From: an uncultured delta proteobacterium
GTDB taxonomy: Bacteria; Desulfobacterota; Syntrophobacteria; Syntrophobacterales; Syntrophobacteraceae
Assembly (NCBI GenBank): GCA_963808625.1
Contig: CAWEHK010000044.1
Span: 31,939 to 95,938 of the forward strand
Direction of reading: 5' to 3'
Length of the DNA: 64,000 nt
Shown here: positions 1,501 through 23,125 of the stretch, piece after piece
Position numbering within the stretch: position 1 is the stretch's first letter
Layout: each line of letters opens with the position of its first letter
The notes under the pieces: generated by a model
Told to the model about the DNA's origin: nothing
Database searches by the model: none
The model's input: only the letters and a program-made list of their open reading frames with translations
Translations under genes and position numbers: made by a program

Positions 1501-2835
1501 GTGAGCGTTAATGTCATCATGCCGAAGCTGGGTATGACCATGCAGACGGGAAAAGTGTCCAAATGGTCCAAGAAAGAAGGGGATCAGGTGCAGAAGGGTG
1601 AAGAGCTCTTCGAAGTGGAGACCGAGAAGATTACCAACAAGGTCGAAGCCCCGGCCAGCGGAATCCTCTTCCAGATTGTCGTTCCAGAAGGAGCGACCGT
1701 TCCGGTCGGAGCCATTGTGGCGGTCATTGCGGAACCGGGAGAACAGCCCGAACGGATCGAGGGCATTCAGGTTGGTGAAATTGCCGAGGTTGCGCCGCAA
1801 CCGGCGGGCGGGGCGCCGCCACAGGCCGAAGCCGAGAGGCCGAAGGAGCGAAGCGAAATCGTGGCGACGCCGGCGGCCAAACGTCTGGCCAAGGAACTCG
1901 GTGTGGATCTCGCTCTGGTGAAGGGCACCGGACCCGAGGGGCGCATCAGGGAGGCAGACGTTACGCACTACCACGAGGAAGCCCAACGAAAACCCAAGAT
2001 CACCCCGCTGGCCGAAGAAATCGCAAAACAGGCGGGCCTCGATCTATCCACGATTACGGGAACGGGAGAAGGCGGGAAGATCACCCGGGAGGATGTAGAG
2101 CGTGCCCTGCAGCCCAGGCAACCGGTGGTCGCAGAACCAATGAAACCTGCCATGACGATCCCTTTGGCAGGCATGCGCAAGGCCATTGCCGATAACATGC
2201 ACGCCAGCCTTCAAAACACCGCCCAGTTGAGCATGTTTACCGAGGTGGACGTCACCGAATCCCTGCGCTTGGTGAAGCTCATTCGCGAACAGTACAAGGG
2301 GGATGAAGCAGTCAGGGTCTCCATGAACGACGTCGTCATCCTGGCAACATCGAGGGCTCTCAAGCGCTTCCCCATCATGAACTCGACCCAGCTGGGCAAT
2401 GACATCATCCTGCATGACCGCGTCGGTATGGGAATCGCGGTGGCCCTGCCTGATGGTCTGATCGTGCCGGTGCTGCGGGATGCCGATCAAAAGGGACTTC
2501 TGGAGATTGCCCGCGAGGCGAGAGTGCTCATCGGGAAAGCCCGATCCGGCTCCCTCGGGATGGATGAAGTAACCGGCGGGACCTTCACCATCAGCAACCT
2601 CAGCGCATCGTGCGTGGACGCCTTCACGCCCATCCTGCGGCCCCCTGAAACGGGGATTCTCGGCCTCGGGCGCGTGGTGGAAAAGCCGGTCGTTTATCAG
2701 GGCGCAATAACGGCTCGCTCCATCATGGGACTGAGCCTGACCATCGATCACCGGGTGGTTGACGGCGCCCCTGCCAGCGAATTCCTGCAGTTGCTGGTCC
2801 GCTATCTCGAACAGCCGATGCTCATGTTGACTTGA
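1501..2835 (+). CDS. acoC: dihydrolipoamide acetyltransferase E2 of acetoin dehydrogenase
   Basis: Lipoyl domain (VETEKITN), two subunit-binding domains (ATPAAKRLA..GTGPEGRI; ITPLAEEIA..GTGEGGKI), catalytic DHRVVDGA; acoA/acoB nearby. Confidence 0.9.
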   Translation: MSVNVIMPKLGMTMQTGKVSKWSKKEGDQVQKGEELFEVETEKITNKVEAPASGILFQIVVPEGATVPVGAIVAVIAEPGEQPERIEGIQVGEIAEVAPQPAGGAPPQAEAERPKERSEIVATPAAKRLAKELGVDLALVKGTGPEGRIREADVTHYHEEAQRKPKITPLAEEIAKQAGLDLSTITGTGEGGKITREDVERALQPRQPVVAEPMKPAMTIPLAGMRKAIADNMHASLQNTAQLSMFTEVDVTESLRLVKLIREQYKGDEAVRVSMNDVVILATSRALKRFPIMNSTQLGNDIILHDRVGMGIAVALPDGLIVPVLRDADQKGLLEIAREARVLIGKARSGSLGMDEVTGGTFTISNLSASCVDAFTPILRPPETGILGLGRVVEKPVVYQGAITARSIMGLSLTIDHRVVDGAPASEFLQLLVRYLEQPMLMLT

Positions 2836-2851: not shown

Positions 2852-4228
2852 ATGTTTGACGTGATTGTGATTGGAGGAGGATCCGGAGGATACGCCGCCG
2901 CGATCAGGGCCGCGCAACTCGGTGGGAAAGTCGCCTTGGTCGAAGCTGCCGAAATGGGTGGTACGTGCGTGAACCGAGGCTGCATTCCGAGCAAGATCTG
3001 GATGCAGGCCGCCTCGCTCCTGCACCAGATGCGCAAGGCGCCCGACTTCGGGATCAAGGCCGCCATCGAGGAAATCGATTTCAAGACCCTGGTCGAGCGG
3101 AAGAACGGCGTTTCGGGAGACATCCGGATGGGGATGGATGCGCTCCTCCAGAACAACGGCGTGCAGGTGGTCCGCGGCCGCGCCGTGTTGAAAAGCCCCC
3201 GGGAAATTGACGTGGAGGGCAGGTTGATCGAAGCCCGCAGGGTTATCATCGCCACGGGGAGCTGCCTCGCCTTTCCCGCCGTGCCCGGTCTCGATGAAGC
3301 CGTGATCACCACCGATCAGGTGTTCGAGATGACGGAAGTCCCATCCTCGATCCTGATCTTTGATTCCGGGTATCTCGAAGTGGAGATGGCCTTTCTCCTG
3401 AACGCCTTCGGTGCGAAGGTAATCCTCGCCGCCGCATCACCGCGCATCCTGCCCCACGAAGATCATGACACCAGCCAGAGGATCACGCAGTCGCTGAGAG
3501 AAAAGGGTGTGGAGGTGATCACCCGTCATACGCTCGAAGCCATCTCAAAGGCTGAACCGGGGGTGGGGTGGTCCTGCCTGCTCGCCGGAGCCAAGGAACG
3601 CACCGTCGAAGTGCAAAAGGTGCTGGTCGCCTCGAGAAAGCCGGCGACCGCCAACATGGGGCTCGAAAAGGTTGGAGTGCAATTGAACGACGATGGCGCA
3701 ATCCCCGTGAACAACCGGCTGGAGACTTCTGCGGAAGGCATTTACGCCATCGGTGACGCCACCGGTGGCCGGATGCTGAGCCATGCCGCGTCTTCTATGG
3801 CGATTACGGCGGCGGAAAACTGCATGGGAAGGGTCAGCGTCTATCCCTTCCACCTGGTTCCTCGCGGCCTGTGGACGTTCCCGGAAGTGGGTGCGGTAGG
3901 CCTTTCCGAAGAGGAAGCGGAAAAGCAGGGAAAGGAAATCGAGGTCGGGAGCTTTCCCTACGCCATCAATGGGCTGGCCATGGCGCGCAACGAAGCGGGG
4001 GGCGCGGTGAAGGTGGTGGCGGGCGCTCAGTACGGGGAAATTCTCGGGGTGCATGTCGTTGGGGCCGGAGCCACGGACCTCGTAGGAGAAGCCGTGCTTG
4101 CCATGCAGCTCGAAGCAACCGTAAACGAGCTTGCCCGCAGTATCCGGGTGCATCCGACTTTTTCCGAAACCGTCGTTGATGCCGCCCGCGACGCGGCAGG
4201 CTGGGCTCTCTATTTGCCGAAACGCTGA
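2852..4228 (+). CDS. lpdA: dihydrolipoamide dehydrogenase (E3)-like flavoprotein with degenerate NAD-binding site
   Basis: FAD motif GGGSGG, redox CVNRGC and C-terminal HPTFSE are intact. The second Rossmann motif reads FDSGYLE. RBS GAGGAGG. Confidence 0.9.
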   Translation: MFDVIVIGGGSGGYAAAIRAAQLGGKVALVEAAEMGGTCVNRGCIPSKIWMQAASLLHQMRKAPDFGIKAAIEEIDFKTLVERKNGVSGDIRMGMDALLQNNGVQVVRGRAVLKSPREIDVEGRLIEARRVIIATGSCLAFPAVPGLDEAVITTDQVFEMTEVPSSILIFDSGYLEVEMAFLLNAFGAKVILAAASPRILPHEDHDTSQRITQSLREKGVEVITRHTLEAISKAEPGVGWSCLLAGAKERTVEVQKVLVASRKPATANMGLEKVGVQLNDDGAIPVNNRLETSAEGIYAIGDATGGRMLSHAASSMAITAAENCMGRVSVYPFHLVPRGLWTFPEVGAVGLSEEEAEKQGKEIEVGSFPYAINGLAMARNEAGGAVKVVAGAQYGEILGVHVVGAGATDLVGEAVLAMQLEATVNELARSIRVHPTFSETVVDAARDAAGWALYLPKR

Positions 4229-4245: not shown

Positions 4246-4727
4246 GGAGACTATCTCAAAGCTGCCTCATATCGTCACCCCGGCTGAAGCCCATGCGGGT
4301 CAACTTAAGCATTTGCTATCTACCCCGAAGGGGTTTCATAAGTCAGCCCAGGGTTAGCGAAAGCGCCACCCTGGGTCAGGAGATGCCATAAACCATCTTA
4401 CCCTGAAGGGGTTACATCAAACAGAGTCATGGCGAGCACCCGGATCTGTTATGAAAAATGCTTTTTATGTAACCCTTTCAGGGTATGGATACTTGTTGTG
4501 CACCCATACCCAGGGTGGCGCTTTCGCTGACCCTGGGCTTACCTATACAACCCCTTCGGGGTAAAAGGGGATGCACCATCCTGATCGTGAAAGACTATGC
4601 GCCTTCCATCGCCTTAAATTGACGCCAATGGGCTGAAGCCGGGGTCCAGAACTCCACGGAAAACCTGGATTCCGGCCTTCGCCGGAATGACGAATGAGAG
4701 CGTCTTGACGATTTTGAGATAGTTTCT
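4246..4727. mobile_element. outer MITE with TIR GAGACTATCTCAAA/TTTGAGATAGTTTC containing an RPE-like hairpin
   Basis: Terminal inverted repeats; a related short copy lies at 20452-20582. Confidence 0.65.
4291..4631. mobile_element. inner 341-bp MITE with 8-bp target-site duplication, carrying REP-like doublets
   Basis: TIR CCATGCGGGTCAACTTAAG / CTTAAATTGACGCCAATGG; GCTGAAGC duplicated at 4283-4290 and 4632-4639; internal ACCCCGAAGGGGT and CCCAGGGT..ACCCTGGG palindromes. Confidence 0.75.
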
Positions 4728-4890: not shown

Positions 4891-4949
4891 AGGGCTCAAG
4901 AAGGCCGGACGGGCAGGGTACAGAATCAAACCATTTCAGGGCGTTGGAA

Positions 4950-6524
4950 ATGAGCGATACCTCAACTCCACACTTACAGGTTCTGGACTGGGGACTCCTG
5001 GATTACGGGGAGGCCTTGAAGCTCCAGGAAGCTTTGGTTTCCGAACGCATCGCGGGTCTTTCTCACGACCGGTTGGTGCTGGTTGAACATCCCCCGGTGG
5101 TGACCATCGGGCGAAGCGGCAACGCCAAAGACCTGCGGGTATGCGAAGAGGTCCTCAAGCACAAGGGGGCGTCGGTATTCCGTATCGACCGCGGGGGTAT
5201 GGCAACATTCCATGGCCCGGGGCAGCTTGTGGCTTACCCGATTCTCAAGCTCAGGGAAAAGGACCTCCACCGGTATCTGCAAAAGCTCCTCAAGGCGGTT
5301 GCCGAAGTGCTCGAAAGCTATGGCCTGAGTCCCGAAATCGGAAGGCACGGGCAGGGCGTCTGGGTGGGTACGGCAAAGATCGCCAGTGTCGGCATTGCCG
5401 TTCGACGGTGGGTCACCTACCACGGGATGGCGTTAAACGTAAACACCGACCTCGCCTGGTTCGACACCATCAATCCCTGTGGGAACCCGGAGGAAACGAT
5501 CACCTCCCTGGAGCGGGAACTGGGGCGCACGCCGGCCATGGGCGAAGTCAAAGACCGTTTCATCGGCGCTTTCTGCCGGATCTTCGAGTATCCCCTGCGC
5601 CCGGAGGTGCGTCAGGTGACAAGAGATCGCCCTCCCTGGCTGGCTCTTCCGGCGCCGTCTCCGGAAGCCCTGCAGCGCATGGGAGCACTGCTCGGCCGTC
5701 TGCAGTTGGGCACCGTATGCCAGAGTGCCGGATGTCCCAACCTGGGGGAGTGCTTCGGCCGAGGGACCGCCACCTTCATGATCCTGGGCGCGACCTGCAC
5801 CCGGACGTGCCGGTTCTGTGGCGTGAACAAAGGCGTTCCTGGCCTGGTGGACGAAGGCGAGCCCGAGCGCGTGGCGGAGGCCGTTGCGGCACTCGGCATC
5901 AGCCACGCAGTCATCACCTCGGTCACGCGGGATGATCTCCCGGATGGTGGAGCCGAGCAATTTGTAAGGACCATCGAAGTGATCCGCAATGGCTGCCCGG
6001 GTGTGACCATTGAAGTGCTGGTTCCGGATTTCAAGGGGTCTTTGAAGGCGCTTCAAAGGGTCTGTCATGCTCGCCCGGAGGTCTTCAATCACAATGTGGA
6101 GACGGTGGCGCGCCTCTATCCTCATGTTCGGCCGCAAGCCCGGTACCAGAGGTCGCTGCAAATTCTCGAATACGCCGCGAGGGAGGGGTTGGTGGTGAAG
6201 TCCGGAATCATGCTGGGACTTGGTGAGACCGAGCGTGAAATCCTGGAGACGATTGCCGATCTCAGACAAACCGGCTGCTCCCGTCTCACCCTCGGACAGT
6301 ATCTGTCACCGTCAAGAGATCACCTGCCCATAGCCAGGTATGTCTCGCCGGAGGAGTTCGAACGGTGGGCGGCAACGGCACGATCGATGGGGTTTCGGGG
6401 AGTGGCGGCGGGGCCTCTCGTCCGGAGTTCCTATCGTGCCGAGGACATGGGCCTTGCGGCTAAGGGGGCGCCCACAAATAAAGAACTTTCTTTTACCACG
6501 AAGAACACGAAGGCCACGAAGTGA
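4950..6524 (+). CDS. lipA: fused octanoyltransferase LipB-lipoyl synthase LipA
   Basis: N-terminal LipB (EHPPVVTIGR, DRGG.ATFHGPGQLVAYPI, KIASVG, NPCG). C-terminal LipA (CQSAGCPNLGEC, CTRTCRFC, RSSY). Confidence 0.92.
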   Translation: MSDTSTPHLQVLDWGLLDYGEALKLQEALVSERIAGLSHDRLVLVEHPPVVTIGRSGNAKDLRVCEEVLKHKGASVFRIDRGGMATFHGPGQLVAYPILKLREKDLHRYLQKLLKAVAEVLESYGLSPEIGRHGQGVWVGTAKIASVGIAVRRWVTYHGMALNVNTDLAWFDTINPCGNPEETITSLERELGRTPAMGEVKDRFIGAFCRIFEYPLRPEVRQVTRDRPPWLALPAPSPEALQRMGALLGRLQLGTVCQSAGCPNLGECFGRGTATFMILGATCTRTCRFCGVNKGVPGLVDEGEPERVAEAVAALGISHAVITSVTRDDLPDGGAEQFVRTIEVIRNGCPGVTIEVLVPDFKGSLKALQRVCHARPEVFNHNVETVARLYPHVRPQARYQRSLQILEYAAREGLVVKSGIMLGLGETEREILETIADLRQTGCSRLTLGQYLSPSRDHLPIARYVSPEEFERWAATARSMGFRGVAAGPLVRSSYRAEDMGLAAKGAPTNKELSFTTKNTKATK

Positions 6525-6779: not shown

Positions 6780-7142
6780 GTGGCAGGAAATCGCTTCATC
6801 GTAGAAATAGGGACGGGCATGGACCTTCATGGTGAAGACGTCACCAAGGCGGCATGCCGTGCCGTCAAGGATGCGATCTCGAGCAGTTGCCTGTGCGGCC
6901 TGGTTGAGATTCTCGGGATTCAGGACCTGCAGGCGGTAGAGGTGGAGATCGTCGTAGCCGTGCCGAGACCCCAGGATGTCGATTTGCATCGGGTAATGGC
7001 CGAAGTCCCCATTGGACGCAAGACCGCGAAGGCCATCGAGGGCGGCATGATGACGCAGGGACTGTGTGTCGCTCAGTTTGCTCCCGATTGCAGTCAGATC
7101 GTGGTGGCCAATGCGGCCGTGACCGTATCCATCAACCGGTAG
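6780..7142 (+). CDS. Lin0512 family protein
   Basis: RFIVEIGTGMDLHGEDVTKAACRAVKDAI...VVANAAVTV signature. Confidence 0.8.
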   Translation: MAGNRFIVEIGTGMDLHGEDVTKAACRAVKDAISSSCLCGLVEILGIQDLQAVEVEIVVAVPRPQDVDLHRVMAEVPIGRKTAKAIEGGMMTQGLCVAQFAPDCSQIVVANAAVTVSINR

Positions 7143-7653: not shown

Positions 7654-8617
7654 ATGGAAATCAGCAATGAGAAAATGATCGACATGTATACGGTCATGAC
7701 CAGGATTCGAACGTTTGAGAGTCGGGTCGCCGAACTTTTCGCCGCAGGGAAGGTTCCGGGCTTTGTCCATCTTTATGTCGGCGAGGAAGCGGTGGCGACA
7801 GGCGTGTGCGGCAATCTCCGCAACTCAGACTACATCACCAGCACCCACCGCGGCCACGGGCATCTGATCGCCAAAGGGGGCGACACGAAGCTGATGATGG
7901 CCGAGCTCTTTGGCAGGAAGACCGGGTATTGCAAGGGCAAAGGCGGATCGATGCACATTGCCGACCGCGACCTGGGGATTCTCGGCGCCAATGGCATTGT
8001 CGGTGCGGGGCCTCCGCTTGCCGCCGGCGCTGCCCTGGCGTGCCAATATCAGGGGAAGGACGATGTGGCGATCTGCTTCTTTGGTGACGGGGCATCGAAC
8101 CAGGGGACGACCCATGAGGCCATGAATCTGGCCAGCTGCTGGAAACTGCCGGTCGTCTTTGTCAACGAAAACAACCTTTACGGCATCTCCTCGTGCACCA
8201 TCAACTCCATGTGCATCCCGAACATCGCGGACCGGGCCAGCGCTTACGACATGCCGGGTGTTACGGTGGACGGGAACGACGTCATGGCCGTGTATGAGGC
8301 GGCCCAGGAGGCGATCAAGCGCGCCCGACAGGGACAGGGACCAACGCTGATCGAGTGCAAGACCTACCGCCACCGGGGCCACTTCGAGGGTGATCCCTGT
8401 GTGTACCGGAACACGAAAGAGCTCGACGAATGGAAAGAGAAAGACCCGATTCCCCGCTTCGAGCAGCGACTCGTTGACCTGCGGCGTGCTGACCCCGGAA
8501 AGAATCGAGGCCATCAAGGACGCCATGAAGAACGAAATCGTGGCTGCGGAGCGTTTTGCTGAAGAGAGCCCCTATCCGGCGGTGGCCGAGATCATGGATG
8601 ACGTTTACACCGTGTAG
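7654..8617 (+). CDS. acoA: acetoin dehydrogenase E1 alpha (TPP-dependent); 1-nt frameshift near 8485
   Basis: PGFVHLYVGEEA, STHRGHGH, GDGASNQG, TYRHRGHFEGD. C-terminus continues in ORF 8390-8617. Confidence 0.9.
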
Positions 8618-8680
8618 GCGGGAAACTCAGCGTGCAGGCATTTCCCTGATAGTTCATTCCATCCAAAGGAGGATGACAAT

Positions 8681-9658
8681 ATGCCGACCATGACATTTGC
8701 CCAGGCTTTGAATGATGCCCATCGAATCGAGATGCTGCGAGACCCCAACGTCTATATCGCAGGAGAGGACGTGGGCACCTATGGTGGAATATTTGGCGTA
8801 ACGGCAGGACTGATCGACCAGTTCGGCACGAAAAGAGTGCGCGATACGCCCATTACCGAAAGCGCCATCATCGGAACGGCGGTCGGCGCTGCATCGTGCG
8901 GGCTGCGGCCGGTGGTCGAGTTGATGTTCGTTGACTTTATCGGGGTGGCCATGGATCAGCTTTTCAACCAGGCTGCCAAGATGAAGTACATGTTCGGCGG
9001 CAAGGCAAAAATCCCCATGGTTCTGAGAGCCACGTGCGGGGCGGGAATCGGCGCTGCCGCTCAGCATTCCCAGTGTCTCGAAGCTTGGTTCATGCACGTC
9101 CCCGGCCTCAAGGTGGTGATGCCGAGCACCCCCTACGACGCCAAAGGGCTGCTCATTGCCTCCATTCGGGACAACAACCCGGTGGTTTTCCTCGAACACA
9201 AGATGCTTTATGCAAGAGAAGGCGAAGTTCCCGAGGGGGAATACACCGTGCCCCTGGGTAAGGCCGATATCAAGCGCGAAGGCAAAGACGTTACCGTGGT
9301 CGCCACTGCCCAGATGGTGCATGTCGCCCTGGGTGCCGCGGAGAAGCTGGCTGCCGAAGGGGTCAGTGTCGAAGTGGTAGACCCTCGCACCCTGTCGCCC
9401 CTGGATGAAGAGACCATTCTGAACTCGGTGCGGAAGACCCATCGCCTGGTGATCGTGACCGAGGAAGTGAAGTTTGCCGGCTCGAGTGCCGAGATTGCCG
9501 CCATTGTTTCGGAAAAGGCATTCGATCGCCTGGATGCTCCCATCCTCCGCGTCGCGGCGCCGTTTGTGCCGGTGCCGTTCTCCCCGGTTCTGGAAAAGGA
9601 GTACGTCCCCAGCGAAGAGAAGGTCATTCAGGCAATCAAAACGGTGATGGAATCGTAG
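8681..9658 (+). CDS. acoB: acetoin dehydrogenase E1 beta
   Basis: GEDVG, DTPITE, AAQHSQ, FLEHK, PVPFSP motifs. Confidence 0.92.
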   Translation: MPTMTFAQALNDAHRIEMLRDPNVYIAGEDVGTYGGIFGVTAGLIDQFGTKRVRDTPITESAIIGTAVGAASCGLRPVVELMFVDFIGVAMDQLFNQAAKMKYMFGGKAKIPMVLRATCGAGIGAAAQHSQCLEAWFMHVPGLKVVMPSTPYDAKGLLIASIRDNNPVVFLEHKMLYAREGEVPEGEYTVPLGKADIKREGKDVTVVATAQMVHVALGAAEKLAAEGVSVEVVDPRTLSPLDEETILNSVRKTHRLVIVTEEVKFAGSSAEIAAIVSEKAFDRLDAPILRVAAPFVPVPFSPVLEKEYVPSEEKVIQAIKTVMES

Positions 9659-9681
9659 ACAGCAAAGAAAGGGGGAAGCTT

Positions 9682-10686
9682 TTGTCACTCGTGGGAATCG
9701 TTGCCAATCCGGCGTCCGGCAAGGATATTCGGAGACTGGTGGCTTACGGCAGCTCCTTTGATAATCAGGAAAAGGTGCGGATTGTGCGCCGTGTCCTCCT
9801 GGGCCTGCAGGCTGTGGGTGTGGACCGTATCTGCTACATGCCCGACTACTACGGAATCGTGCCGAGAGCTCTGGACAGCTTGAAGATTGATATCCCCATT
9901 CACCCGTTGGATTTCGACACGAAAGCGGACCAGCGAGACTCAACCGAAGCGGCGCGAATTATGGAGAAAGAGGGCGCAACCTGTATCGTCACTCTCGGGG
10001 GGGATGGGACCAATCGTGTCGTGGCCAAAGGGACAACAAGGGTCCCCATCCTGCCGATTTCCACGGGAACCAACAATGTTTTCCCCTTTATGGTCGAAGC
10101 CACGGTAGCGGGACTGGCCGCCGGTCTGGTTGCCACAGGGGCGGTGCCGTTGGCGGAAAGCACCTTTCTCTCCACCAGGCTGAATGTCAAGGTGGACGGA
10201 GAGGTTGTAGACCTGGCCCTGGTCGATGTGGCCGTTTGCAGCGACCTGTTTGTGGCATCGAGAGCGGTGTGGGACCTCCGGAAGGTGAATCAGATCTTCC
10301 TGAATCGCGCCGAACCGGACTCCATCGGCCTCTCTTCCATCGGGGGGCTGCTGCACCCGGTGACGGCGGAAGAACCGTACGGCCTGTGCCTCGATCTTGG
10401 GGGCCGCGGACGCTCCGTCAAAGCGCCGGTGGCCCCGGGAATTATTGAACGAGTCTTTGTCAAGGACACGCGCATCATGCGTGTGGGCGAGGAAGTGGAG
10501 ATCCGCAGCGTACCCTCAGTCCTGGCCCTGGACGGTGAACGGGAAGTGGAGGTGCGGCGGGGGCATCACGCTGCCATCCACCTCTCTGAGGAAGGTCCCG
10601 TGGTGGTGGATGTGAAGCGGACCATGAACAGTGCCATGAAGAGGAGGATTCTGGTTCCGGCACTGGACGATGAAGGAACCGCCTGA
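9682..10686 (+). CDS. acoX: acetoin catabolism protein X (ATP-NAD kinase family)
   Basis: ANPASGKDIRRLVA, LGGDGT.R, STGTNNVFP, ALDGERE. Confidence 0.88.
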   Translation: MSLVGIVANPASGKDIRRLVAYGSSFDNQEKVRIVRRVLLGLQAVGVDRICYMPDYYGIVPRALDSLKIDIPIHPLDFDTKADQRDSTEAARIMEKEGATCIVTLGGDGTNRVVAKGTTRVPILPISTGTNNVFPFMVEATVAGLAAGLVATGAVPLAESTFLSTRLNVKVDGEVVDLALVDVAVCSDLFVASRAVWDLRKVNQIFLNRAEPDSIGLSSIGGLLHPVTAEEPYGLCLDLGGRGRSVKAPVAPGIIERVFVKDTRIMRVGEEVEIRSVPSVLALDGEREVEVRRGHHAAIHLSEEGPVVVDVKRTMNSAMKRRILVPALDDEGTA

Positions 10687-10832
10687 ATTTATAGCACTTG
10701 GCAATGAGTTATCGTCGAAGATGGGGAGACCGACGCGGTTTCAGAAACCGCGTCGGTCTGGATGTCACGGACAGACATTCTTTGTCGAGGCCTGTCCCCT
10801 GCTCCCCCTTGCGCAGAAGAGAGGAGGAATAA

Positions 10833-11891
10833 GTGAAAGCAGCAGTTTGGTACGGCAAGAAGGATGTGCGCGTGGAAAACGTGCCCGAACCTCCGGCGCC
10901 AGGTCCCAAAGAGGTCAAAATAAAGGTGCACTGGTGTGGAATTTGCGGGTCTGACCTGCATGAGTACGATGCCGGGCCTATCTTCATCCCCGCCAACGCG
11001 CCTCATCCTCTGACAGGGGCGCAGGCGCCCCTGATTCTGGGGCATGAGTTTTCGGGGGAAGTGGTGCAAACGGGCAGCGCCGTTGATAACGTTCAGGTTG
11101 GTGACCGAGTCACCGCCGATGCCTGTCAGTACTGCGGGGAATGCTACATGTGCAAGCAGAACCGTTACAGTCTCTGCAGCACCCTGGCCTTCACGGGTCT
11201 CATGGCCAACGGCGCTTTCGCGGAGTACGTGAATGTTCCTGCCTACACCCTTTTCAAGATTCCACCCGAGATGCCCTTTGATGCGGCCGCGTTCGTGGAA
11301 CCGGTCGCCGTCGGCGTGCATGCCATCCGAAGAGGTCATGTCCTGCAGGGCGACACGGTTGCCATCGTCGGCGCGGGAACCATCGGTCTGGTCACCCTGC
11401 AATCAGCTAAGGCAGCGGGGGCGAGGAAAGTCATCGTCCTCGAAATGGCCAAGGCCCGGAAGGAGTATGCCACCAAGCTCGGTGCTACGGCCGTCATCGA
11501 CCCCACGGAAACCGATCCCATCGCCGATGTTCGTCGCTTGACCGGCGGGCTTGGTGTCGATGTGGCATTTGAGTGCGTCGGAGGCAGCAAGACGGGCGCC
11601 CTTGCCGTCGACTTGACCCGGATTGGAGGAAGGACCGTGCTGGTTGGGATCTTCGAAAAGCCCAGCGAGATCCATTTCAACAACCTGGTCTTCTTTGAGA
11701 AGGAAATCCTGGGTTCGCTCGCCTACTACGGCGAGTTCGCCACAGCCATCGCCCTCATGGCGGATGGGAGGATCATTGCTGAACCATTGATCACGGCACG
11801 AATCAAGCTGGATGACATTGTGGAAAATGGTTTCAAGGAACTGCTGGCGAACCGGGAAAAACACATCAAGATCCTGGTATCGCCGCAGTAG
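10833..11891 (+). CDS. bdh: Zn-dependent 2,3-butanediol dehydrogenase (acetoin reductase)
   Basis: CGICGSDLHEY..GPIFIP, GHEFSG, structural Zn cysteines, GAGTIG, KILVSP. Confidence 0.88.
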   Translation: MKAAVWYGKKDVRVENVPEPPAPGPKEVKIKVHWCGICGSDLHEYDAGPIFIPANAPHPLTGAQAPLILGHEFSGEVVQTGSAVDNVQVGDRVTADACQYCGECYMCKQNRYSLCSTLAFTGLMANGAFAEYVNVPAYTLFKIPPEMPFDAAAFVEPVAVGVHAIRRGHVLQGDTVAIVGAGTIGLVTLQSAKAAGARKVIVLEMAKARKEYATKLGATAVIDPTETDPIADVRRLTGGLGVDVAFECVGGSKTGALAVDLTRIGGRTVLVGIFEKPSEIHFNNLVFFEKEILGSLAYYGEFATAIALMADGRIIAEPLITARIKLDDIVENGFKELLANREKHIKILVSPQ

Positions 11892-12022
11892 GATGGACCA
11901 CCTGTGGGGAGCGGCTGTGTCTAGCATCCTTCTCCCCAATGTTAAGAGCAAGGCACTAGACTATGATCCGTGATTGAACCCGGTTCGTCATTCCTGCGTG
12001 CTTTCCTATGAAAGTCCACGAT

Positions 12023-12206
12023 GTCATACCGGCGAAGGCCGGTATCCAGGCCGGGTTCCTGGATTCCGGCTAAAAGCATGCCGGAATGACGAGGGAGTGC
12101 TCCGGAAGACTTTCATTGTTCGTTGTGACCTCCCGGTCATGGCGGTTGGCGGGAATCCAGGCTGCGCGAATTTTCTGGATTCCCGCCAAGGACATGCGGG
12201 AATGAC
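12023..12206. repeat. two RPE/REP-like hairpins
   Basis: GTCATACCGGCGAAGGCCGG..CCGGAATGAC and GTCATGGCGG..GCGGGAATGAC. Confidence 0.6.
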
Positions 12207-12302
12207 GAACGGAATCTTTGGCCGAACGATTATTTCTTGCCATGCACCTTAAAAGCTATGGGCACTGAGGCCGCATGAGTCCCACAACATCCTGAAATAT
12301 CT

Positions 12303-14164
12303 ATGATAAATAAGCCAAACATTTCTCATGGTTGTCAGCTTCGATGTCTGACGATCATTGTCCTCTTAATCGCATCCACTCTGCCCCTGCGGTCTCACGC
12401 CGAGGCCGCATGGTTCCTTGATGCCGATCGTTTCCATGCCTCGGTGCATGGGCAGGTCTCGTGCACCGAGTGTCACGGTGCCGTCTCCAAAGAGGTGCCG
12501 CATCCTGATCCTGCCGCAGTTAACAGGGCTTTGAACGATTTTTTCCGGCCTGATCAATGCACGGGCTGCCATGGCGAGGTGTTTGCGAAATTGGACTCGG
12601 GACTGCATGCCGGCAAACCGATCAAAGACCTTGTTGGATATCGGGTATGTATCAGTTGCCATGATCCGCACTATCAACTGAGTGCGACCAATCTTCCGCC
12701 TGGCTTTGACCCGTCAAAGCCGGTCAGCGGGCAGTGCGGTGCCTGCCACGCAATGCAAACGGCACTCCCCCCTCTATCCTTACAAGACGAGGAGTGCATG
12801 GCCTGCCATCGCTCCGTTGCCGTGAATGATCATGATCAAGCCACTAAGATTGCAGCCTTTTGCTTTTCCTGTCATGGGGCCGACAAGAGTAAAGAAGGAC
12901 GCTGATTCTTCGGCTTTTGCGAGCATCGATGTGCAGGCGTATGGCGCATCCACCCATCACAAACTATCGTGTCTCGACTGTCACCCGAAGTCCGCCGAGT
13001 TCGGGCATGCCGGGCAGGAGGTGACGGCCTGCCTGCACTGCCACCACCGGCATGATGAGAAGGTTGCTCATGACGCGCATCTGGATGTCCGTTGCGAAGC
13101 TTGCCACCTTGCCGGGATCATTCCGGTGAAACCAGCCGAGGTCACCCAAATTCGCTGGCGGGTTGACCGTAAGCCGGGTGCCGCGAGTGACCTCCATAAC
13201 ATGACTCTCAAACCCGGTGAAAGCTCATGCGAACGGTGCCACTACCGGGGGAATGCGTTGGGCGCCTCGGCCATGGTGCTCCCTGCCAAGAGCATTCTGT
13301 GCATGCCCTGCCATGCTGCCACGTTTTCTGTTGGCGATACGACAACTATCATTTCGCTGTGCCTGTTCCTGGCAGGTATGGCAGGGCTCGGCGTTGTCTG
13401 GTTCTCCGGAGGTCGTTCAAACGGGGAAACCGCAACCTTTGAGACCGAAACCCACAAAAGCGTCGACAGCCTGCCACGGGACGGTTTACCTGTCCAGAAT
13501 GCTCCGTCTGCTCAAGGTCCTGGCCCTCGACGTTTTCCTGCAACGGAGGCTTTTCCGGCAGTCGCGGACGCGATGGTTCATCCATGGTCTGATCTTCTTC
13601 CCGATTATTTTTCGATTCCTGTGGGGGATTACCGCCCTGCTGACGTCGCTATGGGCGCCGGAATCGTCCCTTCCCTGGGTTCTGCTCGACCGGAACTATC
13701 CGCTCGGGGCATTCCTCTTCGATGCCAGCGGCTTGCTCATCCTCCTTGGAGTCATCTTCACCATAGTTAGAAAAGTCACGGGGCAGACTCAAGCCATCAG
13801 CGGTCTGCCGAAACAGGATTGGCCGGCGCTCTGTCTCCTCGGCGGCATTGTGGTGATCGGCTTTGTGCTCGAGGGGATGCGTATTGCCATGACGGGAGTC
13901 CCCGCCGGGTCGGAATACGCCTTCCTGGGATTTGCGCTCAGTCGCTTATTTGTGAATGCTGCGGTGCTGTCGAACGTTTACGGCTATGTCTGGTATCTGC
14001 ACGCGATCGTGACCGGCGCCCTGGTGGCCTATCTGCCTTTCAGCAATTTGCTCCACATGATCATCGCACCGGTTATCATGGCCTTGAACGCCATGTCCGA
14101 ACCCCGTGGACATCAGGCCAAAAGTTCGATTCACCCTCAACTTACGCAACGCGTCTCACAGTGA
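12303..14164 (+). CDS. multihaem cytochrome c (11 CxxCH) fused to a NarI/HdrE/DsrM-like cytochrome b domain; two frameshifts (~12900, ~13470)
   Basis: Signal peptide, 6 CxxCH in ORF 12303-12905 and 5 in ORF 12826-13770, then TM helices with His in WFIHGLIF, YLHAIV and LLHMII. Confidence 0.8.
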
Positions 14165-14606: not shown

Positions 14607-15029
14607 ATGGAGATCCAGGGATATAATATGCCCGATGACCTCTATTACGAGGAACATCATTACTGGGTAAAGGTGGAAGGCGACCTTCTGGTCATGGGCA
14701 TGGATGATTTTGCCCAGCAGCTTGCAGGGCAGATTGTATACGTGCAGCTTCCCTTCGAGGGGAAAACGCTCCAGGCTGGGAAGAAGTTCGCCAAGGTGGA
14801 ATCCGGGAAATGGCTCGGGACCGTGTATGCCCCGGTGGATGGTGCCATCGAATCCTCGAACGAGGCACTCGAGGCCGATCCCACTCTGATCAACCAGGAC
14901 TGCTACGGGAAGGGGTGGATGTTCAAAATCCGCCCGAAGGACATGACCCAGGTCCAAAGCCTGATATCCGGGCGGGCGGCCGTGGAATCGTGGCTCCTGG
15001 CGGACATCAAGAAGTACAAGCAGGAATAG
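14607..15029 (+). CDS. GcvH-like lipoyl carrier (LbpA type)
   Basis: PDDLYY..HHYWV, GMDDFAQ, lipoyl-Lys in ESGKW, APVDG, N.DCYGKGW. No gcvP/gcvT in the window. Confidence 0.85.
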   Translation: MEIQGYNMPDDLYYEEHHYWVKVEGDLLVMGMDDFAQQLAGQIVYVQLPFEGKTLQAGKKFAKVESGKWLGTVYAPVDGAIESSNEALEADPTLINQDCYGKGWMFKIRPKDMTQVQSLISGRAAVESWLLADIKKYKQE

Positions 15030-15030: not shown

Positions 15031-16219
15031 GTGAGCCGTCGCGACTACCGTATCAGACAGGTCCTGGAGATGGATGCCTGCACCCAGTGCCGGCTTTGCG
15101 CCGAGGTGTGCCCTGCGGTTTCTGCGTCGAAGGATGGGATGCTTTCGGCGCTATACCGCATGAAGGGCCTGAAGGAGATTCTTAAGAGCCGCATTGGGCT
15201 CTACCGCTGGCTCTTCGGCACGAAGGGTCCTTCCGAGGAACAGCGGAAACATTACAGCAGCACCGTTTTCCGGTGCACTCTCTGCGCCGGTTGCCAGGAA
15301 GTCTGTCCCGTCGGCATCGGCCTGAAGGACCTGTGGCTTTCCCTTCGCCAGGACCTGGTTCATTCCGGAAATTATCCGAAGAAGATCGAGATGATCCGGG
15401 ACAACTTGAAGGAAAGCCACAACGTCTTTGCCGAAGCCAACGAGGAGCGGGCCGACTGGGTCGGCGATATGCGCGACGCCCCGGAACACGGCTACGTCAA
15501 GGAGCGGGCGGAAGTTGTCTATTTCACGGGTTGCGTGGCGGCCTATTTCCCACTGGCCCAAAAGATTCCCATGGCGCTGGCGGAAATTCTGGATGCCGCC
15601 GGAGTGGATTTCACGCTGCTGGGCGAGGATGAGTGGTGTTGCGGTTTTCCGCTGCTGGGGGCCGGCCTCAGGGAAATGCTCCAGGAGTTCATGAACCACA
15701 ACGTCGAGGCCGTGCGTCGGAAGGGCGCCGGCCGAATCGTCTTCGCCTGCCCGTCCTGTTACCAGATTTGGCGGGAACATTATCCCCGCGAGTTTGAACT
15801 CGCCCATGCATCCGAGCTCCTGGCGCAACTGATCAGGCAACGACAAATTCCGCTCAAGGATCTGCCGCTGACGGTCACCTATCATGATCCATGCGATTTG
15901 GGGCGCGGGGGCAGGGTTTTTGAGGAGCCGCGGGAAGTGATCCGCGCGATCCCCGGCGTGAACCTGGTTGAGCTGCCGAAAAACCGGGAGAACTGCCAGT
16001 GCTGCGGCGGAGGCGGCAACCTGGAAATGGTCGACGCGGAGCTCTCCGCCGCGATCGCCGGCCGGAAGATTGAAGAAGTGACTAGGCACTGGCGCCCAGG
16101 CGGTCGTCACCACCTGCCAGCAGTGTGTGCGAACCATGACGACCTTTGCCAGGAGGAACAAGGTGCCCGTCGAGGTCATGGATCTTACTCAGCTCGTCCG
16201 GAAGGCACTGAAGCGATAG
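15031..16219 (+). CDS. HdrD/GlpC-like Fe-S oxidoreductase (2x[4Fe-4S] plus two CCG domains); frameshift near 16085
   Basis: CTQCRLCAEVCP, CTLCAGCQEVCP, YFTGC, WCCGF, ACPSC, YHDPCDLGR, CCGGGG, then TTCQQC in the shifted frame. Confidence 0.85.
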
Positions 16220-16242: not shown

Positions 16243-17806
16243 ATGGAGACCTGGCGGCTTTTGGATACACCACCCATGACGGCGGCGGAGAATATGGCGC
16301 TGGATGACGCCCTCGTGGAGCTCAAGGGGGGCGGCGCCACCCCGAACACCATCCACTTCCTGCAGTTTTATCCGCGAGCCGTGCTGGTCGGGTTTCATCA
16401 ATCGGTTAAGAAGAGGTGCGCACCGAATACTGCCGGGCTCATGGGATTCATGTCAACCGGCGCATCACGGGAGGGGGAGCGATCTTCTTCGATGAGAGCC
16501 AGCTCGGCTGGGAAGTCATCTGTGACAAGTCGTTCTTTGACATGGCACTCCCGACCGGAGGGCTTTTCAGGGCGCTCTGCGATCCCGTCGTCACGCGCGC
16601 TGGCGATCCTGGGTGTGGAATCCGCCTTTCGCCCCCGAAACGACATCGAAATCAACGGTCGCAAGATTTCCGGAACGGGCGGGACCGAGAGCGATGGTGC
16701 GTTTCTCTTCCAGGGTACGATGCTCACTGACTTCGACGTGGATACCATGCTGAAGAGCCTGAGAATACCCATCGAGAAACTCAAAGCAAAGGAAATCGAC
16801 TCGATCAGGGAACGGGTCACCTGCCTCAAATGGGAGCTGGGGGTTACGCCGCCGCTGGAAGACATCAAGCGAGCGATTCGGACGGGGTTTGAGCAACACC
16901 TGGGAATCAGGCTCGAACCGGGAGAGCTGACCGCTGCCGAGAGGCAGCTCTTTGAAGAGAAGCTGGAATATTATCAGTCCTCAGAGTGGATCGACCATGT
17001 GAAGCCCGAATTCGAGAAGGGCGAGGTCGTGCAGGCGGCGCACAAGACGGACGCCGGGCTCGTTCGCTTCACCCTGGTCGTCAATCTCCCTCGCAAGAGG
17101 CTGAAGGATGTCTATATCACGGGCGATTTCCTCTCTTTTCCCACGCGGGCGCTGTTCGACCTGGAAGCGAGGCTGAGGGGAGTTCCGCTCGACTACGGCC
17201 ACATCCGCCGTCTTGTCGTGCGATTTCTTTGAGGAAGGACGAATTATCGTCCCCGGCATGTCGTCCGAAGATTTCTGCAAACCCATCGACCAGGCCCTCC
17301 AGAAGGTCGCGATCGCGAACTGCGGCATTCCTCTCGAATACTGCAACCTGATTTCCGTAACCAATGGTTCGTTCGAAGGGGTCATGCGCAAAAAGCCGTC
17401 GGTACTGCTTCTACCCTATTGCGCCAAGCTGCCTGCCTGCGACCTGAGATATGGAAAGACCTGCCGGGCCTGCGGTGAATGTTCGGTCGGGGCCGCGTGG
17501 AGCATGGGCTGTGAACGAAGCATGCGAAACGTCTGTATCACCAGTTTCGAGGATCTCATGGCCGAGCTCGAGAAGTTGAAGGCGTCGGGAACCGAAGCCT
17601 TCATCGGCTGCTGCTGCCAACCCTTCTTCATCAAGCACATGGACGATTTTGCGCGAGCCGGGGTGCCCGGCATCCTCCTCGAGATCGACAACACCACCTG
17701 CTATGAACTGGACCAGGCAAAACAGGCCTATGCCGGGAGCTTCACCAGCCAGACGGAAGTGAATCTCGATTTGCTTCGCGCCGTGCTGGAGGCAGATCTG
17801 GCCTGA
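16243..17806 (+). CDS. lipoate-protein ligase (LplA catalytic plus accessory domain) fused to a Cys-rich DUF116 domain; frameshifts ~16410, ~16595, ~17225
   Basis: WRLLDTP..AAENMALD, NRRITGGGAIF, NDIEINGRKISGTG, ITGDF; C-terminal LLLPYCAK..C..C.C..GCCC. Confidence 0.82.
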
Positions 17807-17830
17807 GGGCATGGGAGTTTCCAATTTCTT

Positions 17831-18135: not shown

Positions 18136-19201
18136 ATGCAAACACGGACGTGCGATATTCTTGTTGTCGGGGCGGGTCCGGCCGGGACATCGGCCGCCCG
18201 GGAAGCTGCTGCACGAGGGGCCCGCGTGGTCGTGGTGGAGCGCCGGGCCGTGATCGGCGTGCCGGTTCGGTGTGCCGAGTACATTCCAGCGCCTCTTCTC
18301 GGTGAGGCGGGTGTCGGCCGCCATTTTGTCGTCCAGCCTGTACGAGGAATGAGGACCTTTTTGAATGGACGCCTTATCCAGGAAACCATTGCCCCGGGCT
18401 ACACCATCCGAAGGGAACTCTTCGATCAGGCCTTAGCGGGCGCGGCAAGCCTTGCAGGCGCTGCCATTCTGCTTTCAACCGCAGCCGTATCCAGAGATCA
18501 TGACGAAGTGCTCGTCAGACAGGGTAGGGGGCAGTTCTCAAGGATCAAAGCAAAGGTGATCATTGGCGCTGATGGTCCTCACTCCATAGTGGGGAGATGG
18601 ATCGGCTCGGTGAACAGGAATCTGATTCCGGCTGTTCAGGTGAGAGCGCCTCTGAGTCGCCCATGGACTTCACCGAGGTCTTTTTCGATGACCGGATCTA
18701 CGGTGGCTACGGATGGCTGTTTCCGAAAGGTGATGAAGCCAACGTCGGCCTGGGCATGAGGCATGGTGGCGGGAGTAATCAAAGAATCGGGAGAATGCTC
18801 GATGAACTCCTCTCTTTGCTGCGCAAACAGGGAAAAATCAAAGGCAAGCCGCGCGACATCCTGGCGGGATGGATCCCTGCCGAAGCCCCGCGGATGATAA
18901 CCCAGGCGAACGTTGTCCTGGTGGGCGATGCCGCCGGACATACGCATCCCATTACCGGCGCCGGGGTTCTGCAAGCCGTGGTCGGCGGCCGCATGGCAGG
19001 GAAATGGGCTGCACGTGCCGTTGAAGCAGAGGACATGAGCTTTTTGCAGGCATACGAATCCGGCATGGCGGGATTTCTATGGGGAGACACTGCAAAGGGG
19101 CTTTGATCGCCGCAAGTTGATGGAAGGGGAGTTGGAACCGGCTTGAGGAGATCATCAGATATTGTTGGGTGGCCTTCAGGGAGTACTATTGCCGGACTTG
19201 A
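18136..19201 (+). CDS. geranylgeranyl reductase-like FAD oxidoreductase (LipT-type); frameshifts ~18660 and near the 3' end
   Basis: VVGAGPAG, PVRCAE, IIGADG, GYGWLFPK, LVGDAAG.THPITGAG. Confidence 0.78.
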
Positions 19202-20979: not shown

Positions 20980-21924
20980 ATGCAGCATCTCAATCGGAAA
21001 ATTGACCAAGCCCGGGAGCTCAGTTGGCAAACGTTTGGCAAACGAATTACCTTCTTCCTCCCCGGCATGTTTTCCTGCAACGGCCATTCAGGTAAATATC
21101 CCGCCTTTTCAATTACTGGCCCGGACTGCCGACTTCAATGCGAACACTGTAAGGCGAAGATCCTTGAGTCCATGATTCCTGCGCGTGAACCGGAAGTACT
21201 TCTGGAGAAATGCCTTCAGCTTGAAGAGAAGGGCAATTCAGGGGTCTTGATCAGTGGTGGCTGCGATGAAGAAGGCTGCCTGCCCTGGGGCAAGTTTGTC
21301 CCGCCATAAAAGAGGTGAAAAGACGGACAGACCTCAGGATCTCCGTCCACAGCGGTTTTGTCACCGAGGCGATGGCTTTTTCCCTTAAGGAAACAGGGGT
21401 CGATCAGGTGCTGGTAGATGTTGTCGGAGACGACGAAACGTACCGAAGAGTCTATCACCTGGAATCCGGCGTCTCCAAGCTTGTTGCCTCCCTCAGGGCG
21501 CTCCGGGAAGCGGGACTGACGATCGTTCCCCACATTTGCTGCGGACTCGATTTTGGAAGAATCAGGGGAGAAAGAAAGGCCATCGAACTGGTTTCCCGGT
21601 TCGAAATAGGGCTTTTGGTGTTCATTTCGCTCATGCCGATTCCGGGTACTCCGATGTGGGGCAAAGCAATGCCCGAGGCCGATGAGGTGGCTGAACTGAT
21701 CGTTGCAGCCCGGCTAAAGATGCCCCGTACGCTAATCAGCCTGGGATGTGCTCGGGAAAGGGGCAACAGGCGTCTGGAAATCCTGGCAATCGATGCGGGA
21801 ATAAACCGCATGGCGCTGCCATCAGAAGAGGCCTTGAACCGGGCGAAGTACTACGGCCTGGAGATTAAATATCAGAGAACCTGCTGTTCCGGTGGGCGAA
21901 GAAATCCCTGATGCAGGATGGTAG
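20980..21924 (+). CDS. lipS1: radical SAM lipoyl synthase subunit, LipS1 type; frameshift ~21300
   Basis: SITGPDCRLQCEHC, LISGGC, LGCAR and C-terminal TCCS motifs. Confidence 0.75.
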
Positions 21925-22024: not shown

Positions 22025-23125
22025 ATGGAAAAAGGAAGTCCGGAAAGCCCCCGCCACCTGAGAATGAGCCTGGCTGCAGCGATGACCCTGGGCTTTCAAC
22101 CCGGCCTCTTTTACCGGAATGCCCGGCTCCATTGCATCAACCTGCTCTTGACGTACGGCACGGGCTGCTCCGCCAGGTGCTCGTATTGCGGCCTATCCGG
22201 CAGCCGCCCCGGGATTCCTTCAGGGAAAAGCTTCATCAGGGTCACCTGGCCGACTTATCCCCTGGAAGACATCATCCGGAGCATCTCGAAGCGCCAGGAT
22301 AAGGTTAAGAGAATCTGCATCTCGATGCTGACCAACCAGCGCGCGGTGCAGGATACGAAAGAGGTTTGCGCAAGGCTGCGGGCAAGCTTCGATATCCCGG
22401 TCTCGCTGCTGATTTCACCCACTCTGGTCAGCTACCAGGATCTGGTGGACTTCAAGACCGCCGGAGGGGACAAAATCGGGGTGGCTATTGACCTGGCAAC
22501 GCCTGCACTGTTTGATCGTTACCGGGGCGCCGGTGCGGGAGGCCCTCATCGATGGGAGACTTACTGGAGCTGTCTTGCCGATGCCATCCGCGTCTTTGGG
22601 AACGGTAATGCAGGGTCTCATTTCATGGTAGGGATGGGCGAAACGGAAAAGGAGATGTGCCGGGCCATTCAGCGGGTCAGAGACCTGGGAGGACGTACGC
22701 ATCTCTTCTCCTTTTTTCCCGAAGCCAACTCGGTCATGGCAGACCATCCTCAACCTCCCATGGACCAATATCGCCGTATCCAGTTAGCCCGCTTCCTGAT
22801 TGATAACGGAGCAAGCAGGGCCGACCAGTTTGTCTATGACGCCCGTGAGCAGCTTACGGATTTTGGCATTCACCGGGAACTGCTCGAGGACACCATCGAT
22901 TCCGGCGAACCTTTTCGCACCAGCGGCTGCGCTGGCTACGACGGGGAAGTCGCCTGCAATCGTCCTTACGCAAACGATCGTCCGGGACCAGGCATTCGGA
23001 ATTTTCCCTTCCGCCCGAATAGAGCGGATATAAGGCGGATTCGGATGCAGATGAAGCCGCCACGTCACAACCGATCCGAGACGCAAAAAGACGGCGTAAG
23101 AAGAAGGGCGCAAGAAGATGATTGA
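22025..23125 (+). CDS. lipS2: radical SAM lipoyl synthase subunit, LipS2 type
   Basis: CSARCSYC, FIRVTWP, FRTSGC.......ACNRP. Confidence 0.78.
   Translation: MEKGSPESPRHLRMSLAAAMTLGFQPGLFYRNARLHCINLLLTYGTGCSARCSYCGLSGSRPGIPSGKSFIRVTWPTYPLEDIIRSISKRQDKVKRICISMLTNQRAVQDTKEVCARLRASFDIPVSLLISPTLVSYQDLVDFKTAGGDKIGVAIDLATPALFDRYRGAGAGGPHRWETYWSCLADAIRVFGNGNAGSHFMVGMGETEKEMCRAIQRVRDLGGRTHLFSFFPEANSVMADHPQPPMDQYRRIQLARFLIDNGASRADQFVYDAREQLTDFGIHRELLEDTIDSGEPFRTSGCAGYDGEVACNRPYANDRPGPGIRNFPFRPNRADIRRIRMQMKPPRHNRSETQKDGVRRRAQEDD

Follow-up and report, generated by a model that had tools for sequence, protein, structure and literature searches.

A dihydrolipoamide dehydrogenase clade without the NAD fingerprint and its possible role in lipoyl-to-lipoyl electron transfer

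In the described lipoate-dependent dehydrogenase complexes, dihydrolipoamide dehydrogenase (E3, or Lpd) closes the reaction by making NADH, the reduced form of nicotinamide adenine dinucleotide (NAD). A stretch of 64,000 nucleotides from an uncultured delta proteobacterium of the Syntrophobacteraceae (GenBank assembly GCA_963808625.1, contig CAWEHK010000044.1, positions 31,939 to 95,938; hereafter, the window) encodes a member of this family, here called E3*, in which the NAD fingerprint is lost. E3* and its relatives have the fold of canonical E3 (TIGR01350), with the same flavin adenine dinucleotide (FAD) motif, CxxxxC, His-Glu pair and place beside the E2 and E1 genes. The clade differs by the loss of the NAD GxGxxG, the beta2 acid and the AxGR loop and by new invariant surface residues, and it is additionally linked to genes for a separate GcvH-like lipoyl carrier (GcvH*) and for HdrD-type proteins.

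HdrDE, DsrMK and TmcBC pair a protein with CCG domains with a NarI-like cytochrome b, and weak profile matches point to the same pairing in the window. The disulfide substrates of HdrDE/DsrMK-type enzymes are CoM-S-S-CoB or DsrC; in the window a lipoyl protein is the apparent substrate, and the cytochrome b forms a fusion with a multihaem cytochrome c. The described acetoin dehydrogenase system reportedly uses an NAD-linked E3. In the accessible part of the account of Pelobacter carbinolicus (PMC3543383), the acoXABCL/acoABCSL cluster shares with the window E1 alpha and beta, E2, E3, lipoate synthesis and AcoX-like genes, as well as butanediol-dehydrogenase-like, epimerase-family and sigma-54 activator genes. 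To this set the window cluster adds a cytochrome-NarI/GcvH*/HdrD module, its own ligase and LipS1/LipS2, and its E3 has no NAD site. The same text proposes LarG, of the P. carbinolicus Act complex, as a GcvH-like lipoyl disulfide carrier between a membrane complex and E3; this genome-based hypothesis differs in its membrane complex and in ending, as far as that text goes, in NAD reduction by a normal E3.

The sHdr-LbpA system with sLpl(AB), LipT, LipS1 and LipS2 likewise combines a GcvH-like lipoyl protein, Hdr-type proteins and a lipoylation cluster, and its E3 is proposed, in the accessible sections of PMC6067878 and PMC10332631, to hand electrons to NAD+. In contrast, no sHdr subunit of sulfur oxidation was found among the 21 open reading frames (ORFs) scanned between 1501 and 25284 of the window, and GcvH* has no N-terminal LbpA Cys. 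A pyridine nucleotide site lost together with a change of partner is also described for the FFTR/DTR flavin thioredoxin reductases (available text of PMC8154056), which belong to another subfamily and are fed by ferredoxin at the flavin; for E3*, exchange between two lipoyl proteins is predicted instead. No description of an NAD-less E3 or of a cytochrome-NarI/GcvH*/HdrD module was found in the literature searched, subscription journals being mostly outside it, and the accessible portions of PMC6270654 and of a 2026 lipoylation preprint contain nothing on an E3*/GcvH*/HdrD system. The conserved NAD-less clade is real and apparently undescribed.

The NAD fingerprint of E3* and its clade

The gene and its motifs lie in the window as follows.

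2852..4228, + strand: E3*, degenerate dihydrolipoamide dehydrogenase, 458 amino acids, single open frame, directly 3' of the E2 gene
2873-2890, + strand: FAD motif GGGSGG, intact
2966..2983, + strand: redox-active CVNRGC, intact (disulfide Cys39-Cys44)
3362..3379, + strand: DSGYLE in place of the NAD GxGxxG, with the third Gly replaced by Glu176
3419..3436, + strand: end of beta2, VILAAA, position 194 without an acid
3464..3502, + strand: helix 205-217, in what was the NAD domain, bearing the clade-specific residues Q209, R210, Q213 and R216; predicted GcvH* contact
3620..3640, + strand: AxGR loop VLVA-SRK, one residue deleted, Arg262 kept
3908..3967, + strand: residues 353-372 of the interface domain, the other half of the predicted carrier interface, beside the lipoamide site
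4151..4168, + strand: catalytic His-Glu pair HPTFSE, intact (His434-Glu439)

E3* matches the TIGR01350 profile with 440 bits (cut-off 408.8), which places it within the family, and its closest solved structures, both by sequence and by fold (Foldseek), are E3s; the Lpd/E3 of PDB code 2eq6 is 39% identical. Among the features of dihydrolipoamide dehydrogenase (EC 1.8.1.4), the FAD GxGxxG, CxxxxC and His-Glu pair are present in E3*, and all three elements of the NAD fingerprint (GxGxxG, beta2 acid and AxGR loop) are missing. The single-chain AlphaFold model has a mean predicted local distance difference test score (pLDDT) of 72.9, falling below 50 in the interface domain. At the C-terminus, WALYLP (window 4202-4219) is near-invariant in the core clade, the tail being different in canonical E3s, and may shape the lipoyl channel.

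Degenerate NAD motifs are shared by all of the best 120 of 7802 matches (65–100% identity). Adding 21 named-genome loci and 15 loci of genomes cited here by handle to these homologues gave a set of 156 clade rows. It excludes two fragments, a split gene and two canonical loci and retains some near-duplicates. The control set comprises 135 of 150 representative E3-like proteins, after removal of 15 clade members (11 by tree and 4 fragments by motif). GxGxx[G/A]xE is found in 125/135 control and 0/156 clade rows, and the beta2-terminal Glu in 130/135 and 0/156, with no acid of any kind in the clade. The AxGR loop is one residue shorter in every clade row and in 3/135 controls. The catalytic motifs are retained, with CxxxxC in 155/156 clade rows (the remaining row is truncated at its N-terminus) and 135/135 controls, and HPxxxE in all rows of both sets. 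An earlier note on this DNA, made from the sequence, had described the FAD motif, CVNRGC and HPTFSE as intact and the NAD GxGxxG and beta2 acid as lost; both descriptions hold, and alignment with E3 homologues, which it had proposed, reveals a whole clade of this kind. Its account of distributed in-frame changes in place of an indel artefact stands, and sequencing error and chance are set aside as well; it needs correction for VASRK, which reflects a one-residue in-frame deletion and not substitution alone.

On sequence grounds, a switch to NADP is rejected. NADP-specific disulfide reductases of the glutathione reductase type have GxGxxA and a basic residue after beta2 (PMC3995211); G-G-[GA] at the three NAD-motif columns occurs in none of the 156 clade rows, and the residue following beta2 is K/R in three and D/E in 121. 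Continued use of NAD(H) or NADP(H) by E3*, perhaps with weak affinity, through a rewired site with Glu176 in place of the beta2 acid is improbable. The absence of an NADP signature and the universal AxGR deletion speak against such a site, as do positions 171-174, which vary freely (Asp at the second Gly in 29/156 rows, Asp or Arg at the first in 57/156), and a Desulfovibrio-type lineage that keeps the third Gly yet has lost the first and mostly the second. What speaks for it is that Glu occupies the third Gly position in 143/156 rows (92% conservation of Glu176) and arises where the beta2 Glu is lost, that E178, M308 and R262 are kept, and that the NAD domain is predicted to fold well and is under purifying selection; in another family member, an NADH oxidase, loss of the beta2 acid alone cut NADH activity only slightly (PMC3995211). 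Since three parts of the site for the adenosine diphosphate and pyrophosphate moieties have changed together across the clade, without an NADP signature, NAD+ use is unlikely. The assertion of the earlier note that this E3 cannot use NAD+ is, at the level of sequence, strongly indicated.

E3* evolves under purifying selection, the NAD domain included: the ratio of nonsynonymous to synonymous substitution rates (dN/dS) is 0.07–0.16 in 11 of 13 pairs, with one pair at 0.44 and one saturated, and the NAD domain is constrained like the rest. A test for whole-domain decay, counting the control-conserved columns lost per domain (FAD 2/28, NAD 2/13, central 2/14, interface 3/23), does not single out the NAD domain. 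The signal is the identity of the lost columns and the non-conservative nature of the changes, not general decay.

There is next to no chance of E3* being a pseudogene in decay or a product of sequencing error, despite the many frameshifted neighbours in the assembly (window 7654-21911: E1 alpha, cytochrome-NarI twice, HdrD, Lpl, flavoprotein and LipS1) and one relative whose E3* lies in two ORFs, through error or as a pseudogene (L021:9989-11339). The changes are common to 156 rows, the frame of E3* is unbroken and aligns with a homologue from end to end, and contigs of relatives (records 10 and 22) span the fingerprint region without a gap; a frameshift or sequencing artefact is thus rejected, as is a pseudogene by a dN/dS of about 0.1. 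Splits occur throughout the genome, affecting 4 of 24 testable genes beyond the operon and 5 of 16 within it, and genes split in the window assembly are whole in relatives, so the splits in the operon are probably assembly errors. At the level of the clade, the shared changes and the dN/dS refute both pseudogene and artefact. Another frameshifted gene, presumably pgi, lies at window 53673-55104.

In a quick tree of 98 proteins, a core clade (Shimodaira-Hasegawa-like approximate likelihood ratio test support 100) is nested within a larger degenerate group (support 99), itself placed among canonical E3s. Most named members belong to the Thermodesulfobacteriota (Syntrophobacteraceae, Desulfovibrionaceae, Desulfarculaceae and Desulfobacterales), with some further members labelled Deltaproteobacteria or Myxococcota and one Leptospirales bin; Desulfomonile tiedjei DSM 6799 is a cultured carrier (WP_014808636.1). 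The degenerate group accounts for 24/80 of the genome loci listed and about 23/80 of the metagenome loci listed, and its share in sequencing runs is small (at most 0.14). Three soil RNA runs from one study contain contigs over E2, E3*, E1 and neighbours at about 92% identity, which is no proof of transcription; the thin coverage of the cytochrome gene in these runs likewise proves nothing. Outside the E3* group on the tree, nine E3-like proteins with damaged NAD motifs (P0164, P0221, P0214, P0167, P0255, P0248, P0266, P0176 and P0132) are possible independent losses.

Gene neighbourhood and co-occurrence with a lipoyl carrier

The genes around E3* in the window, and the corresponding soluble set of two relatives, are listed below.

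1501..2835, + strand: E2 dihydrolipoamide acyltransferase, with a lipoyl domain, two E3-binding domains and catalytic DHRVVDG
4944..6524, + strand: LipB-LipA fusion (family profiles)
6780..7142, + strand: Lin0512-family protein (family profiles)
7654..8611, + strand: E1 alpha, frameshifted near its 3' end in the assembly
8681..9658, + strand: E1 beta (family profiles and solved relatives)
9682..10686, + strand: NAD-kinase-like protein (family profiles), which we take to be AcoX
10833..11891, + strand: Zn-dependent dehydrogenase, with a 2,3-butanediol dehydrogenase role suggested by context
12303..14164, + strand: fusion of multihaem cytochrome c and NarI/DsrM-like cytochrome b, in three pieces in the window
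14607..15029, + strand: GcvH*, GcvH-like lipoyl carrier (PF01597) with ESGKW, Lys68, and Phe50 at the predicted E3* interface
15031..16216, + strand: HdrD-like protein with 2x[4Fe-4S] and two CCG domains, frameshifted near its 3' end
16252..17812, + strand: LplAB-like lipoate-protein ligase fused to DUF116, split in the assembly
18136..19198, + strand: geranylgeranyl-reductase-family flavoprotein, split, probably LipT-like by analogy with the accessible text of PMC10332631
19421..20428, + strand: double glyoxalase / methylmalonyl-CoA-epimerase-family protein (family profiles)
20980..21911, + strand: LipS1-like lipoyl synthase, split, the best piece under the family cut-off
22025..23125, + strand: LipS2-like lipoyl synthase (220 bits, cut-off 270)
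23209..25287, + strand: PAS / sigma-54 activator, AcoR/DhaR-like (family profiles)
L283:4266-11948 and L284:7721-15809: soluble Hdr set around GcvH*

The gene set of an acetoin dehydrogenase cluster is present in the window: E1 alpha and beta, E2, E3, the presumed AcoX-like protein, a putative butanediol dehydrogenase and an AcoR-like activator. By analogy with the P. carbinolicus acetoin cluster, which shares several of the accessory genes in the available text of PMC3543383, the substrate of E1/E2 is likely acetoin or butanediol. The nearest solved relatives of E1 beta are pyruvate/2-oxoacid dehydrogenase subunits, and the E1s at other clade loci diverge widely (37–91% identity).

The HdrD-like protein fits the CCG proteins HdrD, DsrK and TmcB in its domain set and its NarI-like partner. 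It reaches no named NCBIfam cut-off, and the CCG/NarI pair gives weak matches below cut-off to the DsrK, TmcB, DsrM and TfrB models. The cytochrome c-NarI fusion is a single ORF with 11 CxxCH motifs in the three relatives counted. In GcvH*, the lipoyl Lys68 is invariant in 10/10 sequences. LbpA is defined by two conserved Cys, one near each end (Cao et al., accessible part of PMC6067878); GcvH* has the GcvH fold and the lipoyl Lys but a single Cys, Cys99, with no sHdr subunit among the 21 ORFs scanned around it, and was rejected as a strict LbpA.

Within the flanks of 24 clade loci from named genomes, E2 is found at 23, the cytochrome-NarI gene at 10 and GcvH* at 7. The order E3*-LipBA...cytochrome-GcvH*-HdrD recurs in 10 of the 15 loci cited by handle, the HdrD gene of G043 lying just beyond the fetched stretch. 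Distant sister lineages also adjoin E1/E2, and one adjoins the cytochrome-NarI gene. Within one sample of 401 genomes from the phylum, searches for degenerate E3, for the HdrD type of the window (HdrD*) and for GcvH* found them in 23 (16 core and 7 sister), 24 and 69 genomes, respectively. GcvH* is present in 21/23 genomes with a degenerate E3 against 48/378 others, the two misses being genomes 85% and 80% complete, and in families f1, f23, f43 and f46 it occurs in E3*-bearing genomes only; 8 of 10 further genomes also have it. HdrD* is present in 13/16 core genomes. The association with an HdrD and LbpA block raised in the earlier note is thus recovered, with the qualification that the carrier falls outside the LbpA definition.

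Two of the three core genomes without HdrD* carry GcvH* among HdrA/MvhD-, HdrC- and HdrB-like genes and a fusion of FAD oxidase and CCG protein (assigned in G374 by Pfam and in G397 by matching layout), and this soluble set may use the lipoyl protein as its disulfide. In three sister genomes, GcvH* adjoins a lactate-racemase-like gene and an FAD-oxidase-CCG fusion. Among 11 HdrD* genomes without E3*, the module contains another CCG gene in nine, and an FAD-linked oxidase was seen in six. The cytochrome-NarI/GcvH*/HdrD module appears to be a constant output that can be fed in different ways, given the other inputs found where E3* is missing and the soluble Hdr variants. FAD-linked oxidase and a second CCG protein are found at the E3*-less loci L212, L214, L216, L218, L219 and L221, some of them near a lactate-racemase-like gene or a TRAP transporter, which suggests that these modules oxidise 2-hydroxyacids through the same carrier.

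Canonical E3s elsewhere in these genomes bear on the proposal, also made in the earlier note, that E3* heterodimerises with a canonical E3 that is the sole supplier of the NAD site. The genome search for a second lpd that the note had called for did find two complete canonical genes in the source genome (on contigs C8 and C31), and further E3-like matches occur in all 10 other genomes tested, those read having intact NAD motifs. The two copies in the source genome sit in operons of their own, for glycine cleavage and 2-oxoglutarate dehydrogenase; neither the 24 named-genome loci nor the 15 loci cited by handle have a second lpd in their flanks; the only other match in G231, which is 100% complete, is a distant E3-like protein under the family cut-off; and E3* keeps the two halves of the active site, disulfide and His-Glu pair, that a homodimer would require. 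We consider such a heterodimer very improbable.

Several further features of these loci were noted. In the source genome (G000), another E3 match with an internal stop lies behind a pyruvate-dehydrogenase-like E1/E2 set (C43:140362-141261), and an E1 alpha/beta pair is without a nearby E3 match (C23:38238-40222). Two E2 genes per cluster are seen at L006, L012, L013, L021 and L119, and small proteins recur, of the Lin0512 family at 11/26 loci (window 6780-7142) and DUF6506-like at 7/26 (L008:17697-18002). Palindromic repeat-like elements lie between operon genes, for example at window 4300-4720, some of them with very high contig depth in a wetland run. Outside the operon, the ORFs at window 45580-49949 presumably encode CO dehydrogenase, a ferredoxin-like subunit and an FAD/NAD oxidoreductase.

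Predicted E3*-GcvH* contact and a proposed electron route

Complex prediction for E3* and GcvH* gave a score of 0.70, against 0.02 for the best of three controls. The score mark is reached by 116/157 solved complexes and 2/215 mismatched pairs, rates that are only approximate as our own alignments were used. The prediction runs share at least 89% of contacts, with partner pLDDT of at least 89. On E3*, the interface comprises 15 residues within 205-216 and 353-372, and on GcvH* it encircles the lipoyl-Lys68. Four of the 15 (Q209, R210, R216 and E357) belong to a list of 29 clade-specific positions drawn up beforehand, from which about one would be expected; with a looser list, made after the prediction, the number is six (p 0.003). 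Residues 336-444 of E3* align at equal length to 345-453 of PDB code 2a8x, with residue 372 at Ala381, which lines the lipoamide site in a solved Lpd (accessible part of PMC10739260). In the model the carrier is accordingly placed at the lipoyl entrance, away from the old NAD face. Residue 50 of GcvH*, which makes the closest predicted contacts, is Phe or Leu in 12/12 HdrD*-type modules with E3* and Asp, Glu or Pro in 11/11 without, and the two kinds of module interleave on the HdrD tree.

We consider it rather probable that E3* is an NAD-independent lipoyl:lipoyl transhydrogenase that routes electrons from an acetoin-type dehydrogenase to an Hdr-type complex. Two-electron exchange between the disulfide of E3 and a lipoyl group is reversible, so the half-reaction could run forward with E2 and backward with GcvH*, with no need of NAD. 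E1 and E2, whose genes are present, would oxidise acetoin or a related substrate and yield dihydrolipoyl-E2, which, from the chemistry of the family, would reduce Cys39-Cys44 of E3* by way of the usual lipoamide channel, His434-Glu439 serving as the base. The reduced E3* would be reoxidised, in the reverse half-reaction, by oxidised lipoyl-GcvH* docked on helix 205-217 and residues 353-372, as modelled. Gene context suggests that dihydrolipoyl-GcvH* would then give up its electrons to the CCG clusters of the HdrD-like protein, from which they would pass through the NarI-like cytochrome b to quinone or to the periplasmic multihaem domain, and that in some lineages a soluble HdrABC-type set beside the carrier would take the place of the membrane route.

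Loss of the NAD site would shield this route from the NADH pool. The potential of NAD is -0.32 V. That of lipoamide, -0.29 V in the available text of PMC6067878, lies slightly above it, so that a canonical E3 works uphill and responds to NADH, a difficulty that electron flow to quinone or to cytochromes of the periplasm would avoid. Of the three options in the earlier note, transfer from the lipoyl group of E2 to that of LbpA is best supported, by co-occurrence and by the complex prediction, although the carrier is not a strict LbpA.

The same data bear on an alternative in which an NAD-independent E3* passes electrons from its flavin to another acceptor (the HdrD [4Fe-4S] clusters, ferredoxin, flavodoxin, electron-transfer flavoprotein or quinone) and GcvH* serves other enzymes. 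We regard this as unlikely: the predicted partner interface lies on the lipoamide side and is built from clade-specific residues, no ferredoxin, flavodoxin or electron-transfer flavoprotein gene recurs among the clustered neighbours, and dihydrolipoamide, at -0.29 V, is ill suited to reducing low-potential ferredoxin. When longer forms with fused domains were sought, one match to E3* was found, 40% identical, with E2 and E3 domains and no fusion to GcvH or an iron–sulfur protein, which is a weak argument in the same direction. In favour of direct transfer, FAD-binding residues and flavin-facing K48 and E178 are conserved, and the cytochrome-NarI gene directly adjoins the HdrD gene at L015 and G144, without GcvH* between them, although the genome of L015 encodes GcvH* elsewhere. 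It also has a precedent in a related fold that lost its pyridine nucleotide site for ferredoxin (available text of PMC8154056).

A number of observations weigh against lipoyl-to-lipoyl transfer by E3*. GcvH* was not found in G404 (best match 3e-28) or G410 (no match), and 3/16 core genomes are without HdrD*. The co-occurrence is inflated by kinship, as the 23 genomes represent 7 families and the 156 rows include near-duplicates, and the 378 other genomes may hide degenerate E3s, as motifs were read in top matches only. Phe50 is absent in 4/8 further E3* genomes, in G374 and G397, in L029 and in the sister family. H-protein and E3 are a textbook pair, so that the predicted contact may reflect family likeness, the controls being without a canonical E3/GcvH pair, and E3* was folded as one chain, whereas the channel forms in the dimer. 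K48, E178, M308 and R262, which we take to face the nicotinamide or the flavin, are kept in E3*, and the tolerance of an NADH oxidase to loss of its beta2 acid, described above, counts in the same sense. If the FAD oxidases of related modules act on lactate, reduction of a lipoyl group at -0.29 V would be uphill, so that any role of the carrier there is tentative.

Implications

A wider role for the carrier can be put forward tentatively, and we are slightly more doubtful of it than confident: GcvH* might be a general cytoplasmic dithiol carrier, the disulfide substrate of bacterial HdrDE- and HdrABC-like enzymes, fed either by E1/E2/E3* or by FAD-oxidase/CCG dehydrogenases, so that the output of the complex would not be NADH. 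A clade annotated as ordinary Lpd would drop the NADH-forming step that closes the described reactions. If the proposed route is true, it would represent a new enzyme activity, and the redox bookkeeping in models of sulfate reducers and syntrophs would be wrong. It would also offer a candidate for the disulfide substrate of bacterial Hdr-like proteins, which has long been sought, in a form testable with four soluble proteins.

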